53,201 nt of DNA from an uncultured Clostridiaceae bacterium. GTDB lineage: Bacteria; Bacillota; Clostridia; TANB77; CAG-508. The stretch is taken from positions 1 through 53,201 of the forward strand of contig CATXTS010000001.1 of the NCBI GenBank assembly GCA_958402495.1, in the 5' to 3' direction. The translations under genes were made by a program, and so were the position numbers. Below the pieces are notes generated by a model. That model saw nothing but the letters and a program-made list of their open reading frames with translations. It was not told where the DNA came from and did no database searches. This document shows positions 29,546 through 38,683 of the stretch, in pieces (position 1 is the first letter of the stretch; each line of letters begins with the position of its first letter).

Positions 29546-30238
29546 TTACTGTATAATTTTATCGGCTTCTTCTTGGGAAAGGTAACCATATTTAACCATA
29601 GAACGAATCACTTTTCCTTGTCTACTTCTAGCTAAATCTGGATTAATAGTAGGTGCATAAACAGAAGGGGCATTAGGTACACCTGCTAACATAGTTGACT
29701 CATATAAAGTAAGGTCTTTTGGTTCTTTTTTATAATAGCCATTAGCAGCTTCTTTAATGCCATAATAGCCTTCGCCGAAATAAATGGTATTTATGTATAA
29801 TTCTAAGATATCATCCTTAGAATAATTTTTTTCTAACTCCATAGCCATAAAAATCTCAGCAATTTTTCTAGAAACAAAATCGTCCTCTGTAATAAAATAT
29901 AAATTTTTAGCTACCTGTTGGGTAATGGTACTACCACCTTCATTTAACTCACCAGCACGAATATTAGAAATAACAGCTCTACCAATCGAAATTACATCAA
30001 TAGCACCATGTTCCTTGAAGCGATGGTCCTCTACAGCAATAACAGCATTCTTATAATCATCTGGTACATCCTCTTTTTTAGTATAATTTTCATCACTTTG
30101 AATCTTTTCTATTTTGTCTTTCAAACTCATTTCCTCTATAGCGGATTTATATAACTTATGACCATTTAAAATTACAACAGTTGAAGCAATAATTATAACC
30201 GCTAATAGAAGAAGGAGCCCTCTTTTCACATATTTCAT
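29546..30238 (-). CDS. monofunctional peptidoglycan glycosyltransferase (GT51), paralog A
   Basis: N-terminal TM anchor, with GT51 motifs AVEDHRFKEHGAID and GGSTITQQVAKN. Length 230 aa. Confidence 0.85.
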   Translation of the reverse strand: MKYVKRGLLLLLAVIIIASTVVILNGHKLYKSAIEEMSLKDKIEKIQSDENYTKKEDVPDDYKNAVIAVEDHRFKEHGAIDVISIGRAVISNIRAGELNEGGSTITQQVAKNLYFITEDDFVSRKIAEIFMAMELEKNYSKDDILELYINTIYFGEGYYGIKEAANGYYKKEPKDLTLYESTMLAGVPNAPSVYAPTINPDLARSRQGKVIRSMVKYGYLSQEEADKIIQ

Positions 30239-36403: not shown

Positions 36404-37108
36404 ATGAAGATAGTAAAAAGAGTGTTATTAATCATTATGTTGATGGTAATTAGTATAGGCCTATATATAGTGGATAGTGGTCATGAGATGTATAAAAAAG
36501 CTTTAGAGCAGACTAGTTTAACAGATAGAGTAGAGCAAATCCGTGCAAAGGAAAACTATACCACTCTAAAAGAAGTACCACCTATTTACCTAAAAGCAGT
36601 GATTTCAGTAGAAGACCATAGATTCTATGAACATGGGGGTATCGATATCATTGCAATAGGAAGAGCTGTAATTAACGATATAAAAGCTATGAAGTTAGTA
36701 GAGGGTGGTAGTACGATTACACAGCAATTGGCAAAGAACATGTATTTTACACAAGAAAAAAAATTTACCAGAAAAGTAGCAGAAGTATTTATGGCATTTG
36801 AAATAGAAAAACAATATAGTAAGGAGGAAATTTTAGAATTGTATCTAAATACTAGTTATTATGGAGATGGCTACCATACAATAAAAGAGGCCTGTAGAGG
36901 CTATTTTCAAAAAGAGCCAAATCAAATGACAGATGCAGAGAGCATTTTATTAGCTGGTATTCCGAATGCACCATCTATATATGCTCCTACTAAAAATCCA
37001 GAGTTAGCAAGACAAAGACAATTGCAAGTGATGAATAAAATGATAAAATATGGTTATTTGACAGAAGAAGCCAAACAAAATATTATAAATATGAATGCAC
37101 AGGAATAA
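36404..37108 (+). CDS. monofunctional peptidoglycan glycosyltransferase (GT51), paralog B
   Basis: Same architecture and motifs as paralog A (SVEDHRFYEHGGID, GGSTITQQLAKN). Identity to A is roughly 55% by eye. Confidence 0.85.
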   Translation: MKIVKRVLLIIMLMVISIGLYIVDSGHEMYKKALEQTSLTDRVEQIRAKENYTTLKEVPPIYLKAVISVEDHRFYEHGGIDIIAIGRAVINDIKAMKLVEGGSTITQQLAKNMYFTQEKKFTRKVAEVFMAFEIEKQYSKEEILELYLNTSYYGDGYHTIKEACRGYFQKEPNQMTDAESILLAGIPNAPSIYAPTKNPELARQRQLQVMNKMIKYGYLTEEAKQNIINMNAQE

Positions 37109-37187
37109 AAAATAGTTAAAATTTTTAGAATATGAATAAGGAAGTAAAACGAACATATACTATAAATAATATTTTTATTATAAATTC

Positions 37188-37216
37188 TTGACAATATAGG
37201 CATTTGACGCTATAAT
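37188..37216 (+). promoter_or_regulatory. consensus sigmaA promoter of the type III TA locus
   Basis: TTGACA (37188-37193), 17 nt, TATAAT (37211-37216). Confidence 0.75.
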
Positions 37217-37234
37217 AAAAATATGGAATATAAG

Positions 37235-37330
37235 CAGCCACCTAGTTGGCGATGAGGAAATACACTAGTGAAACGATATAAACAGCCACCCAGTTGGCGA
37301 TGAGGAAATGTACTGGTGAAAAAATATAAT
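37235..37330 (+). ncRNA. tandem 48-nt repeats (2 copies): candidate type III antitoxin RNA
   Basis: Repeat 1 (37235-37282) is cagccacctagttggcgatgaggaaatacactagtgaaacgatataaa. Repeat 2 (37283-37330) is cagccacccagttggcgatgaggaaatgtactggtgaaaaaatataat. They lie between the promoter and a terminator, directly upstream of the toxin ORF. Confidence 0.65.
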
Positions 37331-37360
37331 AAGGGGGCCAAAAAGCCTCCTTATTTTTTT
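37331..37360 (+). terminator. rho-independent terminator between the repeats and the toxin gene
   Basis: Stem aagggggc / gcctcctt (one G.U pair), followed by attttttt. The toxin RBS ggaggg starts at 37361. Confidence 0.7.
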
Positions 37361-37370
37361 GGAGGGAAAA

Positions 37371-37895
37371 ATGGAGATACATGAAGGAAGGTTATATTTT
37401 ATAAAAGATGATTTTTTAGAAAAATATGCAGAAAAATATAATCTAATGGACAATAAAATAGAAAAAGGAACGAAAAGACCTACTTATTTTTGCTTTAAAG
37501 ACCATAAAGAAGAAAATATGTTATGGTTTGTGCCTATGTCTAAACAATATGAGAAATATAAAAAGATATATACGAAAAAGAAGATGAATATAAATAGAGA
37601 GCCTAACAACTTTGTTTTTTTTGATAATATAGTTGGAATTAAAGGCGTATTTTTAATACAAAATATGTTTCCAACCACAAAACAATATATTCAAGAAGAA
37701 TATTACAGAAGAGGGCAAGAAGTAAAAGTCCCCAAGAATATTCGAAGAGAAATCCTACAAAAGGCGAAAACAATGATAGCGTTTGCTAGTAGAGGAGTGA
37801 ATACTACTTATACAAACTTACCAGAATTTATGAAAGAAATCAGAAGTGAAATAGCGATGGACTCAAAAGAGAATACTTCTTTTCCAAATAAATAG
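37371..37895 (+). CDS. type III toxin-antitoxin system toxin (ToxN/AbiQ/CptN-like endoribonuclease)
   Basis: ATG 37371 follows ggaggg. GRLYFIKDDFLEKYAEKYN...KRPTYFCFKD...MLWFVPMSKQYEKY parallels the AbiQ/ToxN N-terminal pattern (LYxVxxxYxxYLxxxD...RPYxGxxx...YxAPLSSPK). The locus architecture is diagnostic. Confidence 0.6.
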   Translation: MEIHEGRLYFIKDDFLEKYAEKYNLMDNKIEKGTKRPTYFCFKDHKEENMLWFVPMSKQYEKYKKIYTKKKMNINREPNNFVFFDNIVGIKGVFLIQNMFPTTKQYIQEEYYRRGQEVKVPKNIRREILQKAKTMIAFASRGVNTTYTNLPEFMKEIRSEIAMDSKENTSFPNK

Positions 37896-37999
37896 TAGGA
37901 CGAGAAAGGATAATAGAAGATTTGACAGGAGAAGCCGAACAAAGTATAATGAAAGCACAAAACTAAAGGAAATACAAAAGTAAAAAATGGGGGACAATT

Positions 38000-38683
38000 A
38001 TGAAGAAAAAGCCACATAATAAAGTGATTTTATGGTCTATCCTAATTAGTATTTTAATTATTTTGACTGATGTGATAGTGATATTTTGTTTTCCAGAAGC
38101 ACAAACTGTTTTTAAAACGGTCTATGAAGCAAAAGATTTTGGAATAGAGATTCTTTACAGTGATAAAGATGAAAATCAAAATGGAATAGATGATTATACC
38201 GATATTTTATTAGGTGCTAAAGAAGAGGCTAAAAATCGACCAACCTATAAAAATGCCTATTATGCAGGTGGTTATCCACCAGATGGGGAAGGGGTGTGTA
38301 CAGATGTGATATGGAGGGCTTTTAAACATGCCGGTTACACGTTAAAAGATATGGTAGATGCCGATATTAAAGAACATATAGAGGCATATCCTAGAACAGG
38401 AGGAACTGCTGATTCAAATATTGATTTTAGACGTGTAGATAATTTAAGAGTATTTTTTAGTAGAAATGCTAAAAATTTAACCACAGATTTAACGAAAATA
38501 GAGCAATGGCAACCAGGAGATATAGTGACTTTTGGAAAGTCCCATATTGGCATTATTTCAGATAAACGAAACGAAAAGGGAATTCCCTACTTAATTCATA
38601 ATGCATCACAGCCTAATAGAGAAGAAGATGCCTTAGAACGTTGGAATACATATGAACCTATTTCAGGACATTTTAGATGGTAA
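38000..38683 (+). CDS. DUF1287 domain-containing protein with N-terminal TM anchor
   Basis: YYAGGYPPDGEGVCTDVIWRAF...NIDFRRVDNL...WQPGDIVTFG..HIGIIS...LIHN matches the DUF1287 (NlpC/P60-like) pattern. Confidence 0.65.
   Translation: MKKKPHNKVILWSILISILIILTDVIVIFCFPEAQTVFKTVYEAKDFGIEILYSDKDENQNGIDDYTDILLGAKEEAKNRPTYKNAYYAGGYPPDGEGVCTDVIWRAFKHAGYTLKDMVDADIKEHIEAYPRTGGTADSNIDFRRVDNLRVFFSRNAKNLTTDLTKIEQWQPGDIVTFGKSHIGIISDKRNEKGIPYLIHNASQPNREEDALERWNTYEPISGHFRW

Follow-up and report, generated by a model that had tools for sequence, protein, structure and literature searches.

A CptIN-family type III toxin–antitoxin cassette with two non-identical RNA units, recently inserted behind a transglycosylase gene in an uncultured gut Clostridium

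The systems closest to the locus analysed here are CptIN of Eubacterium rectale (CptIN-Er), for which a structure has been solved (4RMO; Rao et al. 2015, PMC4627078), and the cptIN family (Blower et al. 2012, PMC3401426), which like this locus is chromosomal and found in Firmicutes, and which, as is already known, can occur in several non-identical copies within one genome. Published cptIN loci carry repeats of 40–48 nt in 1.9–3.4 copies and a toxin of 45–213 aa (PMC3401426, Table 2). ToxIN (P. atrosepticum, B. thuringiensis, E. coli) and AbiQ/antiQ follow the same type III principle, sharing with CptIN the gene order, a Kid/MazF-like core and a toxin that processes its own repeat RNA. ToxI units, unlike the CptI units described below, measure about 36 nt, occur in 2–5.5 copies and form 3:3 triangular complexes, and abortive-infection (Abi) activity is proven for ToxIN/AbiQ but not for CptIN. 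TenpIN (PLoS Pathog 2026, PMC13682666; Nadig et al. 2025, PMC12283969) also has two non-identical, H-type-capable units per locus, and its solved complexes are 2:2 heterotetramers, but its toxin belongs to a different family from CptN.

The present locus lies on the forward strand of the window, the whole 53,201-nucleotide stretch of DNA that was analysed. [quoted passage not shown] The sigma-70-type promoter (37188–37216) matches the consensus at 12 of 12 positions, with TTGACA at 37188–37193, TATAAT at 37211–37216 and a spacer of 17 nt, and transcription probably starts near 37223; the 53-kb window contains three exact TTGACA-17-TATAAT sites, where shuffles predict 0.03. Two tandem 48-nt cptI units follow, unit 1 at 37228–37275 and unit 2 at 37276–37323, recognized by repeat search, pseudoknot scan and covariation. 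TRF reported a tandem repeat at 37227–37329 (period 48, 2.1 copies, 85% matches, score 157), and direct comparison of the two units gave 85% identity, or 7/48 differences. The repeats end 41 nt upstream of the cptN ATG, on the same strand and behind this single 12/12 promoter.

Between antitoxin and toxin lies an intrinsic terminator (37328–37362), found by sequence scan and again in the minimum free energy (MFE) fold, which contains the same hairpin (37328–37355); it comprises an 11-bp stem with five G-C pairs and a 6-nt loop, followed by TTTTTTT. The terminator is presumably leaky, setting an excess of RNA over toxin, a role taken from the ToxIN/CptIN literature (PMC3401426, PMC5086642). A strong ribosome-binding site, GGAGGG (37361–37366), overlaps the end of the terminator U-run and stands 4–5 nt upstream of the ATG of the 174-aa cptN gene (37371–37895).

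Profile, fold and invariant residues show that the product of this gene is a CptN-family endoribonuclease with a Kid/MazF-like fold, in which helices enclose a twisted β-sheet core, its RNase activity being predicted from sequence and model. The ORF scored 129.1 bits (E = 1.1e-37) against NCBIfam NF047359 “CptIN family toxin”, an equivalog (NF047359.1) with a cut-off of 90 bits, the match spanning profile positions 2–148 of 150. phmmer aligned residues 8–153 with PDB 4RMO_A (CptN) at E = 2.4e-19, and a Foldseek search of the PDB with the AF2 model (pLDDT 89.9, pTM 0.85) returned 4RMO_A as the best match (E = 1e-10, TM 0.84/0.75, rmsd 2.5 Å), with MazF/Kid family members ranking after it. The sequence-only reading had drawn a parallel between the N-terminal half of the protein and ToxN/AbiQ-type toxins. 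A Pfam search of the toxin gave no match, ToxN_toxin (PF13958) being absent even at E ≤ 1, and in Foldseek AbiQ (4GLK) ranked 9 and ToxN (7D8O) ranked 39, with TM values of only about 0.5–0.55. Membership in the ToxN/AbiQ family was therefore rejected; the sequence relatives of the protein are CptN toxins, and the profile comparison proposed in that reading came out positive for CptN (NF047359, 129 bits) and negative for ToxN.

The toxin is only about 27–30% identical to CptN-Er, and it has an additional C-terminal helix (about residues 150–169) that lies past the 150-position family model. Every one of the 17 columns that do not vary in a family alignment of 40 sequences is preserved in this toxin, including R36, P37, W52, P55, S57, K62, Y63, Q97, N98, F100 and P101; the conserved S57 equals S51 of CptN-Er, and Y111 aligns with its Tyr104. 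S57-K58-Q59 stands where CptN-Er has Ser51-Ser52-Arg53, presumably the published Ser-Ser/Thr-Arg triad, as judged from the sequence PLSSR, and the adenine-specifying Asp81 and Ser85 of CptN-Er are not conserved, V88 and G92 being aligned there. Because of these two departures, catalysis and specificity of the window toxin could differ from those of CptN-Er. The [KR]-Q variant is common in the family, with K or R at the first position in 23/88 sequences and Q at the second in 25/88, and it also occurs in a second cptIN copy of the same genome.

With 48-nt repeats in 2.1 copies and a 174-aa toxin, the locus falls inside the published cptIN ranges, its unit being longer than the 45 nt of CptI-Er and at the top of the 40–48 nt range. 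It is another member of the known CptIN family and not the undescribed subfamily that had been suggested, although the expectation of about two repeats in CptIN-type loci was correct. Of 301 genomes sampled from this bacterial family, 90 contain homologs of the same layout. TRF on 35 distinct homologous loci gave 27 matches (46–49 nt × 2.0–2.3 copies, 38–79 nt before the ATG); loci L013–L020 have two diverged units that TRF missed, and L008 has one unit only. The second cptIN copy of the genome, on contig C120, is divergent and its start is apparently frameshifted; close relatives of its RNA region were sought in the family genomes, with AT-rich noise as the only result.

The pseudoknot scan placed a core in each unit, at 37237–37268 and at 37285–37316 of the forward strand, and both match the H-type topology of CptI-Er. 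In unit 1, stem S1 pairs GCCA (37237–40) with UGGC (37247–50), loop L1 is the single nucleotide C37241, stem S2 pairs CUAGU (37242–46) with ACUAG (37264–68), and the A-rich loop L2 occupies 37251–63, followed by a 3′ tail of UGA|AACG. Unit 2 has the same S1 (GCCA/UGGC) and an S2 of CCAGU (37290–94) and ACUGG (37312–16). The U37243–A37267 pair of unit 1 is thus replaced by C37291–G37315 in unit 2, so that two of the seven differences between the units form one compensated pair, a divergence that sets them apart from the units of CptIN-Er. The 1-nt L1, the long A-rich L2 containing AAAU and the tails ending in UGA|AA are shared with CptI-Er, whereas L2 is 13 nt long instead of 9, S1 has 4 bp and S2 directly adjoins S1′ with no spacer.

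Covariation among relatives supports, in silico, an H-type pseudoknot in the CptI units. When 26 distinct units from relatives were aligned with MAFFT, 96.2% of cells were paired, compared with 29–35% when the partners were slid by 1–3 columns and 74% in column shuffles, none of which reached the observed value (0/500); these units had been chosen by a scanner demanding perfect helices, which inflates the paired percentage but not the covariation of homologous columns. Seven of the ten pairs vary on both sides across the 26 units, and the covariation score was 0.61 vs. 0.04–0.15, in a sample where many loci are close kin. A nested MFE fold recovered nothing beyond the S1 hairpins, the terminator and a pairing of the two units through their near-palindromic S2′ segments; such a fold cannot represent pseudoknots and was not counted as pseudoknot evidence. 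An Rfam search of the repeats found no CptI model, just sub-threshold snoRNA/sRNA noise.

Compensated S2 differences between the units occur in 27 of 31 loci, and the two RNA units of a cptIN locus usually differ by compensated stem changes. The description of cptIN repeats elsewhere as near-identical, with “1-2 differences” typical (the TenpIN paper, PMC13682666), is at odds with the loci studied here. L2 retains an invariant AAAU, which also lies within the L2 of CptI-Er (AUAUAAAUG), where the mutations A29U and ΔU30 abolish antitoxicity (PMC4627078). Where the two units differ in the stems the changes are compensated, and the tails and the L2 AAAU are left intact, a pattern characteristic of purifying selection that maintains the RNA fold. 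CptI-Er is cleaved after A45 of the unit (PMC4627078); if cleavage here likewise follows the A in the conserved UGA|AA, a fully processed 48-nt antitoxin is predicted at 37272–37319, with ends that may be off by 1–2 nt.

The cptIN cassette (37105–37919, forward strand) was recently inserted, duplicating the 3′ end of the upstream gene, and two related genomes lack it at this position. In these empty sites (G323:C60 and G121:C5) a DUF1287 gene directly follows the gene for a monofunctional transglycosylase (GT51), and the matches to the two flanks overlap by 37 nt at the repeat. The cassette measures about 0.82–0.86 kb (~864 bp), its borders being accurate to a few tens of bases, and DNA homology to cptIN cassettes in other contexts (L006/L007) begins at 37105. 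The left duplicated segment (37056–37108), identified by direct repeat, Pfam and the empty-site junction alignment, is the working 3′ end (..YLTEEAKQNIINMNAQE*) of the GT51 gene (36404–37108; Pfam Transgly, E = 1.7e-62) and includes an 11/12 promoter-like site at 37058–37086. The right segment (37920–37966), identified by direct repeat, promoter scan and the same alignment, reads as a relic alternative GT51 3′ end (DLTGEAEQSIMKAQN*) and bears a 12/12 promoter at 37922–37950 that would serve the downstream DUF1287 gene (38000–38683). The two copies correspond to a direct repeat (D2, 37056–37089/37920–37953) with 85% identity.

A search for flanking duplications at five other loci (L002, L003, L006, L012 and L013) gave only weak AT-rich repeats, 24–27 nt long with 78–88% identity, in L012 and L013, and the pattern therefore cannot be generalised. 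No other locus among L001–L040 has a GT51 gene upstream of cptIN, so these loci point to no donor for the diverged half of the left repeat.

These data make it highly probable that the locus represents a type III toxin–antitoxin module of the CptIN family which looks functional. In the proposed mechanism, the strong constitutive promoter would transcribe the two tandem 48-nt units, most transcripts ending at the intrinsic terminator and a minority extending into cptN, which would yield RNA in excess over toxin. CptN would cut the precursor at the conserved single-stranded UGA|AA junctions and remain bound to the product, an H-type pseudoknot (S1 of 4–5 bp, L1 of 1 nt, S2 of 5 bp and a long A-rich L2) whose two tails would bridge two toxin monomers into a closed, inactive protein–RNA ring of 2:2 stoichiometry, as in the solved relative. 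Once transcription ceased or the RNA were lost to degradation, unbound CptN would cleave cellular RNAs and arrest growth. A toxin of the CptIN kind would be neutralised by its cognate RNA only, and would process it to ends bearing a 2′,3′-cyclic phosphate. Cleavage position, stoichiometry, terminator leakiness and toxicity are here modelled on the solved E. rectale homolog.

Biologically, the locus most likely acts as a small mobile cassette that secures its own retention by addiction. Two cptIN loci tested in E. coli gave no phage resistance but stabilised plasmids (PMC3401426, PMC4627078, PMC5086642). A dedicated abortive-infection system, in which a phage that halts host transcription or degrades CptI would cause CptN to kill the infected cell, is a less probable but serious alternative: the type III systems ToxIN, AbiQ and TenpIN abort phage infection (PMC3401426, PMC5086642), the cptIN cassette is patchy, often multicopy (90/301 genomes) and recently inserted, as defence genes often are, and in one relative (L006) cptIN is followed, at a distance of about 2.7 kb, by a ToxN_toxin (PF13958) gene. 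However, PADLOC matched the toxin to no defence system, the neighbours are cell-wall and housekeeping genes and do not form a defence island, and reviews record no observed activity of CptIN against phages, a literature search yielding no later report of one. Phage defence by the CptIN family is possible but unproven, and the label “abortive-infection type” used in the sequence-only reading is not established for CptIN.

That the locus is instead an inactive relic, with a dead toxin (S-K-Q for S-S-R) or without expression and with decaying repeats (7/48 differences), is improbable. The toxin motif does depart from the solved E. rectale enzyme, the repeats are less alike than the one or two differences called typical of cptIN (PMC13682666), and the start of the second cptIN copy is seemingly frameshifted; however, the ORF is intact behind its strong ribosome-binding site and keeps every family-invariant residue, the promoter is perfect and the terminator strong, and the repeat differences are compensated in the stems and leave the tails and the L2 AAAU untouched. 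Roughly one family member in four carries S-[KR]-Q, suggesting that this is an active variant whose basic residue has shifted by one position. It is hardly credible that the repeats are a cis-regulatory leader (e.g., a protein- or ligand-binding attenuator) of an unrelated RNase gene, for although they lie in a 5′ leader ahead of a terminator and are named by no Rfam model, the downstream gene exceeds the curated cut-off for CptN, the RNA matches the solved CptI antitoxin in pseudoknot topology, unit length and copy number, and no alternative anti-terminator pairing is evident in the MFE fold.

The locus itself is routine, in that NCBI's annotation model would name its toxin; it adds a clean case of CptIN, intact and from an uncultured gut Clostridium of low GC, for which an empty site exists naturally. 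The empty site is direct evidence that chromosomal type III modules move as sub-kilobase units, a mobility suspected by Rao et al. (PMC4627078) and Goeders et al. from plasmid-stabilisation data. The set of relatives gives the CptI pseudoknot strong covariation support beyond the lone solved structure, and shows that non-identical, compensated units are common in cptIN, against the statement in the recent TenpIN paper (PMC13682666). Cognate specificity could be tested on a naturally occurring pair, given the S-[KR]-Q variant and the presence of two divergent copies in a single genome. A joint reading, which we put forward as speculative and rather unlikely, would have this family of small-genome gut Clostridia host autonomous, recombinase-free mini-cassettes at gene 3′ ends together with selected, non-identical pseudoknots. 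The cassettes, of about 0.8–1 kb, may on landing duplicate the gene end with its embedded promoter, and the non-identity may be selected against mispairing of adjacent units in the precursor or, alternatively, may reflect a complex that holds one RNA of each kind; either of these two explanations of non-identity, if true, would be a CptIN design rule so far undescribed.

The locus carries, in order and all on the forward strand, a perfect match to the sigma-70 consensus promoter (TTGACA-17-TATAAT, 37188-37216), a tandem repeat array, an intrinsic terminator, a ribosome-binding sequence (GGAGGG, 37361-37366, read from the sequence) and an ATG-initiated ORF of 174 codons (37371-37895). The 53-kb window contains three exact instances of this promoter pattern vs. 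0.03 expected from dinucleotide shuffles. Tandem Repeats Finder (TRF) placed a single array at 37227-37329, with 2.1 copies of a 48-nt period, 85% matches and a score of 157; within it, a repeat search delimited cptI unit 1 (37228-37275) and unit 2 (37276-37323), with 7 mismatches between them. The terminator (37328-37355, followed by TTTTTTT) has an 11-bp stem with 5 G-C pairs and a 6-nt loop, and its hairpin was also recovered in a computed nested fold of the window transcript. The layout described in the sequence-only reading (promoter, two 48-nt repeats with 7 differences, terminator, ribosome-binding sequence and 174-aa ORF) is confirmed, with every element at its claimed position.

Searches of the ORF against Pfam-A and PADLOC gave no match, even at E ≤ 1. 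In NCBIfam it matched one model alone, the equivalog NF047359 ("type III toxin-antitoxin system CptIN family toxin"), with 129.1 bits where the curated threshold is 90 and with E 1.1e-37, over positions 2-148 of the 150 in the profile. The only real match in a PDB sequence search was 4RMO chain A, the "CptN Toxin" of Eubacterium rectale (Er; E 2.4e-19, residues 8-153). An AlphaFold2 model computed from a 40-sequence alignment was confident (mean pLDDT 89.9, pTM 0.85), and its top structural match in the PDB was again 4RMO_A (E 1e-10, target-normalised TM 0.84, rmsd 2.5 Å), followed by MazF/Kid-type toxins; AbiQ ranked 9th and E. coli ToxN 39th, both with TM ~0.5. On the strength of the NF047359 match and of the 4RMO sequence and fold matches, the toxin is CptN, related to ToxN and AbiQ at the superfamily level only, and the earlier proposal of a ToxN/AbiQ-like N-terminal half is not supported at the sequence level.

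CptN-Er has a Ser-Ser/Thr-Arg triad, Asp81 and Ser85 that specify the scissile adenine, and Tyr104 (Rao et al., PMC4627078); from the sequence PLSSR, we infer that the triad is S51-S52-R53. An 88-sequence alignment including the 4RMO fragment shows that the window toxin retains the counterparts of Er S51 (Ser57) and Er Y104 (Tyr111), as well as all family-invariant positions (R36, P37, Y39, W52, P55, K62, Y63, L95, Q97, N98, F100, P101, and Y106). It differs from Er in having K58-Q59 in place of S52-R53, and V88 and G92 aligned with D81 and S85. The family columns contain 56 Ser, 19 Lys, 9 Thr and 4 Arg at the K58 position, and 58 Lys, 25 Gln and 5 Arg at the Q59 position, so that the basic residue appears to take one of two places in the family, third in S-[ST]-[KR] or second in S-[KR]-Q. 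The S-[KR]-Q variant, found in the window toxin (S-K-Q) and in the second copy of its own genome (S-R-Q), is one of three modest side observations worth recording.

The antitoxin RNA CptI-Er (unit AAGUUUACCACUGACCGAUAUGUGGUAUAUAAAUGGUCGGGUUGA, taken from primer CptI-WT) forms an H-type pseudoknot whose L1 is a single base (G13) and whose L2 is long and A-rich (A27-G35); the RNA is cleaved after A45 to leave a cyclic phosphate (PMC4627078). A pseudoknot scan showed that both window units fit this topology. On the forward strand, unit 1 has S1 GCCA/UGGC (37237-40/37247-50) with L1 = C, S2 CUAGU/ACUAG (37242-46/37264-68), L2 GAUGAGGAAAUAC and the tail UGA↓AACG; unit 2 has S2 CCAGU/ACUGG (37290-94/37312-16) and is otherwise as unit 1. 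Two of the seven inter-unit differences form a compensated S2 pair (U-A in unit 1, C-G in unit 2), three lie outside the helices at the 5′ and 3′ unit ends (37234, 37274, and 37275), and L2 carries the final two at its 3′ end. AAAU is invariant in the L2 loop of the units, and the L2 of the larger clade of relatives, AUAUAAAUG, is the identical string to that of Er, where the mutations A29U and ΔU30 abolish antitoxicity (PMC4627078). The conserved 3′ tail (G)UGA↓AA resembles GUUGA↓AAG in Er; by analogy, we predict cleavage after A37271 and A37319, releasing a 48-nt unit (37272-37319), good to 1-2 nt.

Covariation was assessed in a MAFFT alignment (A1) of 26 distinct units, many of them from loci that are close relatives of one another, pairing columns 11-15 with 22-26 (S1) and 17-21 with 40-44 (S2). 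Units with another geometry, such as those in the second copy of the genome itself (4-nt L1), were left out, as were L018/19. Standard pairs filled 96.2% of cells, a percentage inflated by a purpose-made scanner that picked units by demanding perfect helices, vs. 74.3% in column shuffles (0/500 reaching the observed value) and 29-35% when partners were slid by 1-3 columns. Seven of the ten pairs changed on both sides, vs. 0-3 in the slid versions and a shuffle mean of 6.0 (129/500 reaching the observed value). The covariation score was 0.61 vs. 0.04-0.15 in the slid versions, and covariation at homologous, sequence-aligned columns is not a product of the scanner. Units of the second copy, inspected by eye, form S1 UGACC/GGUCA and S2 CUUGU/ACAAG (unit 1) or CCUAU/AUAGG (unit 2).

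In a survey of cptIN loci, repeats were 40-48 nt long (mean 44.8) in 1.9-3.4 copies, with toxins of 45-213 aa (Blower et al. 2012, PMC3401426, Table 2); all loci were chromosomal, mostly in Firmicutes, with several copies in some genomes (PMC3401426). The window locus lies within every published range (repeat length, copy number, and toxin size), and homologs are frequent in the same bacterial family (90 of 301 sampled genomes, 30 of 50 genera, often several per genome); these data therefore do not support an undescribed subfamily, as had been suggested. Decayed cptN copies also exist: a split remnant in a related genome (G170:C1:599976-600302; 77% identical over residues 1-71, 59% over 124-164) is nearer to the window toxin than most intact homologs. 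In a relative (L006, ENA ERZ4240422 NODE_237), a gene matching Pfam ToxN_toxin (PF13958; 6160-6489) lies ~2.7 kb downstream of cptIN, with genes for an HTH_3 regulator and for a 545-aa protein without a family between the two. Type III toxin-antitoxin or defence genes may thus form a small cluster in this region.

The host genome (1.89 Mb, 168 contigs, 94% complete, ~30% G+C locally) has a second cptIN module on contig C120 (L002 1290-1962), with a toxin 46% identical to the window copy, 49-nt repeats of different sequence (2.1 copies, L002 1326-1428), its own terminator and a promoter-like TTGCAA..TATACT. Its well-placed ATG (1482, after AAGGAG) meets TAA after 10 codons, and the CptN frame starts at ATG 1495 without a good ribosome-binding sequence, which suggests that an A/T run has gained or lost one nucleotide, in a pseudogene or through an assembly error. 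Since CptN toxins are reportedly neutralised by their cognate CptI only (PMC4627078), two non-cross-reacting modules within the host genome are plausible. As to function, neither of the two experimentally tested cptIN loci protected E. coli against six coliphages (PMC3401426, PMC4627078, PMC5086642), no later account of anti-phage activity by CptIN emerged from the literature searched, and the toxin has no PADLOC match. The label "abortive-infection type" is accordingly not established, and we regard it as an extrapolation from ToxIN, AbiQ, and TenpIN. CptIN-Er stabilised a par-deficient plasmid (PMC4627078).

The module is bracketed by an imperfect 34-nt direct repeat (37056-37089/37920-37953, 85% identity). 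The duplicated segment (37056-37108/37920-37966) reaches stop codons at 37106-08 and 37964-66 and corresponds to the last ~15 codons, diverged, of the upstream transglycosylase gene. On the forward strand, the left copy (37056-37108) is the working end of that gene (Pfam Transgly, E 1.7e-62), and the right copy (37920-37966) is a relic gene end (DLTGEAEQSIMKAQN, then a stop) containing the perfect promoter (37922-37950) of the downstream DUF1287 gene. A transglycosylase paralog (29553-30164, ~67% DNA identity to 36478-37083) is encoded on the opposite strand, 7 kb upstream. In two genomes of the same genus, G323 (90-91% identity) and G121 (81-82%), the DUF1287 gene directly follows the transglycosylase gene at an uninterrupted junction, leaving empty sites at G323:C60:3435-3471 (L042) and G121:C5:~68937-68970 (L043). 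In G323, 37 nt are shared by the two flank matches, and this overlap coincides exactly with the repeated segment. In the junction alignment, the left copy is identical to G323 over its first 23 nt, and in the right copy it is the second half that resembles G323. DNA homology with the cassette of L006/L007, which sits in a quite different context after a HemN-like gene, starts at 37105, the transglycosylase stop codon.

These comparisons point to the cptIN cassette being a ~864-bp insertion. It possibly entered by recombination at a short homologous core, or was possibly captured together with a donor fragment; no recombinase gene lies within the ~864-bp insert, and other cptIN loci showed only weak AT-rich repeats as flanking duplications. 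A deletion between the repeats could instead have removed the cassette from the relatives, but this is less parsimonious, given that the cassette is missing from both of the nearest ones and that a relic gene end is present. The insertion with its empty site is a modest side observation worth recording. A motif, AACATATACTATA (CATATAATATTA in relatives), recurs ~20-35 nt upstream of the cptIN -35 box in unrelated contexts (window 37153-37165, L002 ~1248-1260, L006 2779-2792), and farther out in L013-L017 (up to ~35-40 nt by one count, ~85 nt by another); the motif may mark the left cassette end or act as an operator.

Among 35 distinct homologous loci drawn from genome and metagenome collections, 27 have a TRF array (46-49 nt, 2.0-2.3 copies) 38-79 nt 5′ of the ATG. 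L013-L020 lack one and carry two units diverged beyond TRF detection: for example, L013-L017 have GCCU/AGGC and CUAGG/CCUAG in unit 1 but GCCA/UGGC and CCAGU/ACUGG in unit 2, and the S2 of L020 changes from ACCUAU/AUAGGU in unit 1 to ACUUGC/GCAAGU in unit 2. L008 (Logan SRR25904991 contig) encodes a toxin identical to that of L006 but has one cptI unit vs. 2.2, most likely through assembler collapse of the tandem repeat, which calls for caution when counting repeats in short-read contigs.

A 2026 TenpIN paper describes toxIN and cptIN repeats as near-identical, with 1-2 differences, in contrast to tenpIN (PMC13682666). In the 31 loci with two delimitable units, the ~33-nt pseudoknot cores of paired units show a median of 8 differences, and S2 differs between units in 27 of these 31 non-independent loci, compensated every time. 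The usual non-identity of cptI units within a locus, seen in L013-L017 and L020-L040, contradicts the near-identity statement. The nested fold of the window transcript pairs the S2′ segments of units 1 and 2. Compensated non-identical units are a modest side observation worth recording, and we speculate that non-identity may avoid mispairing between neighbouring units in the precursor.
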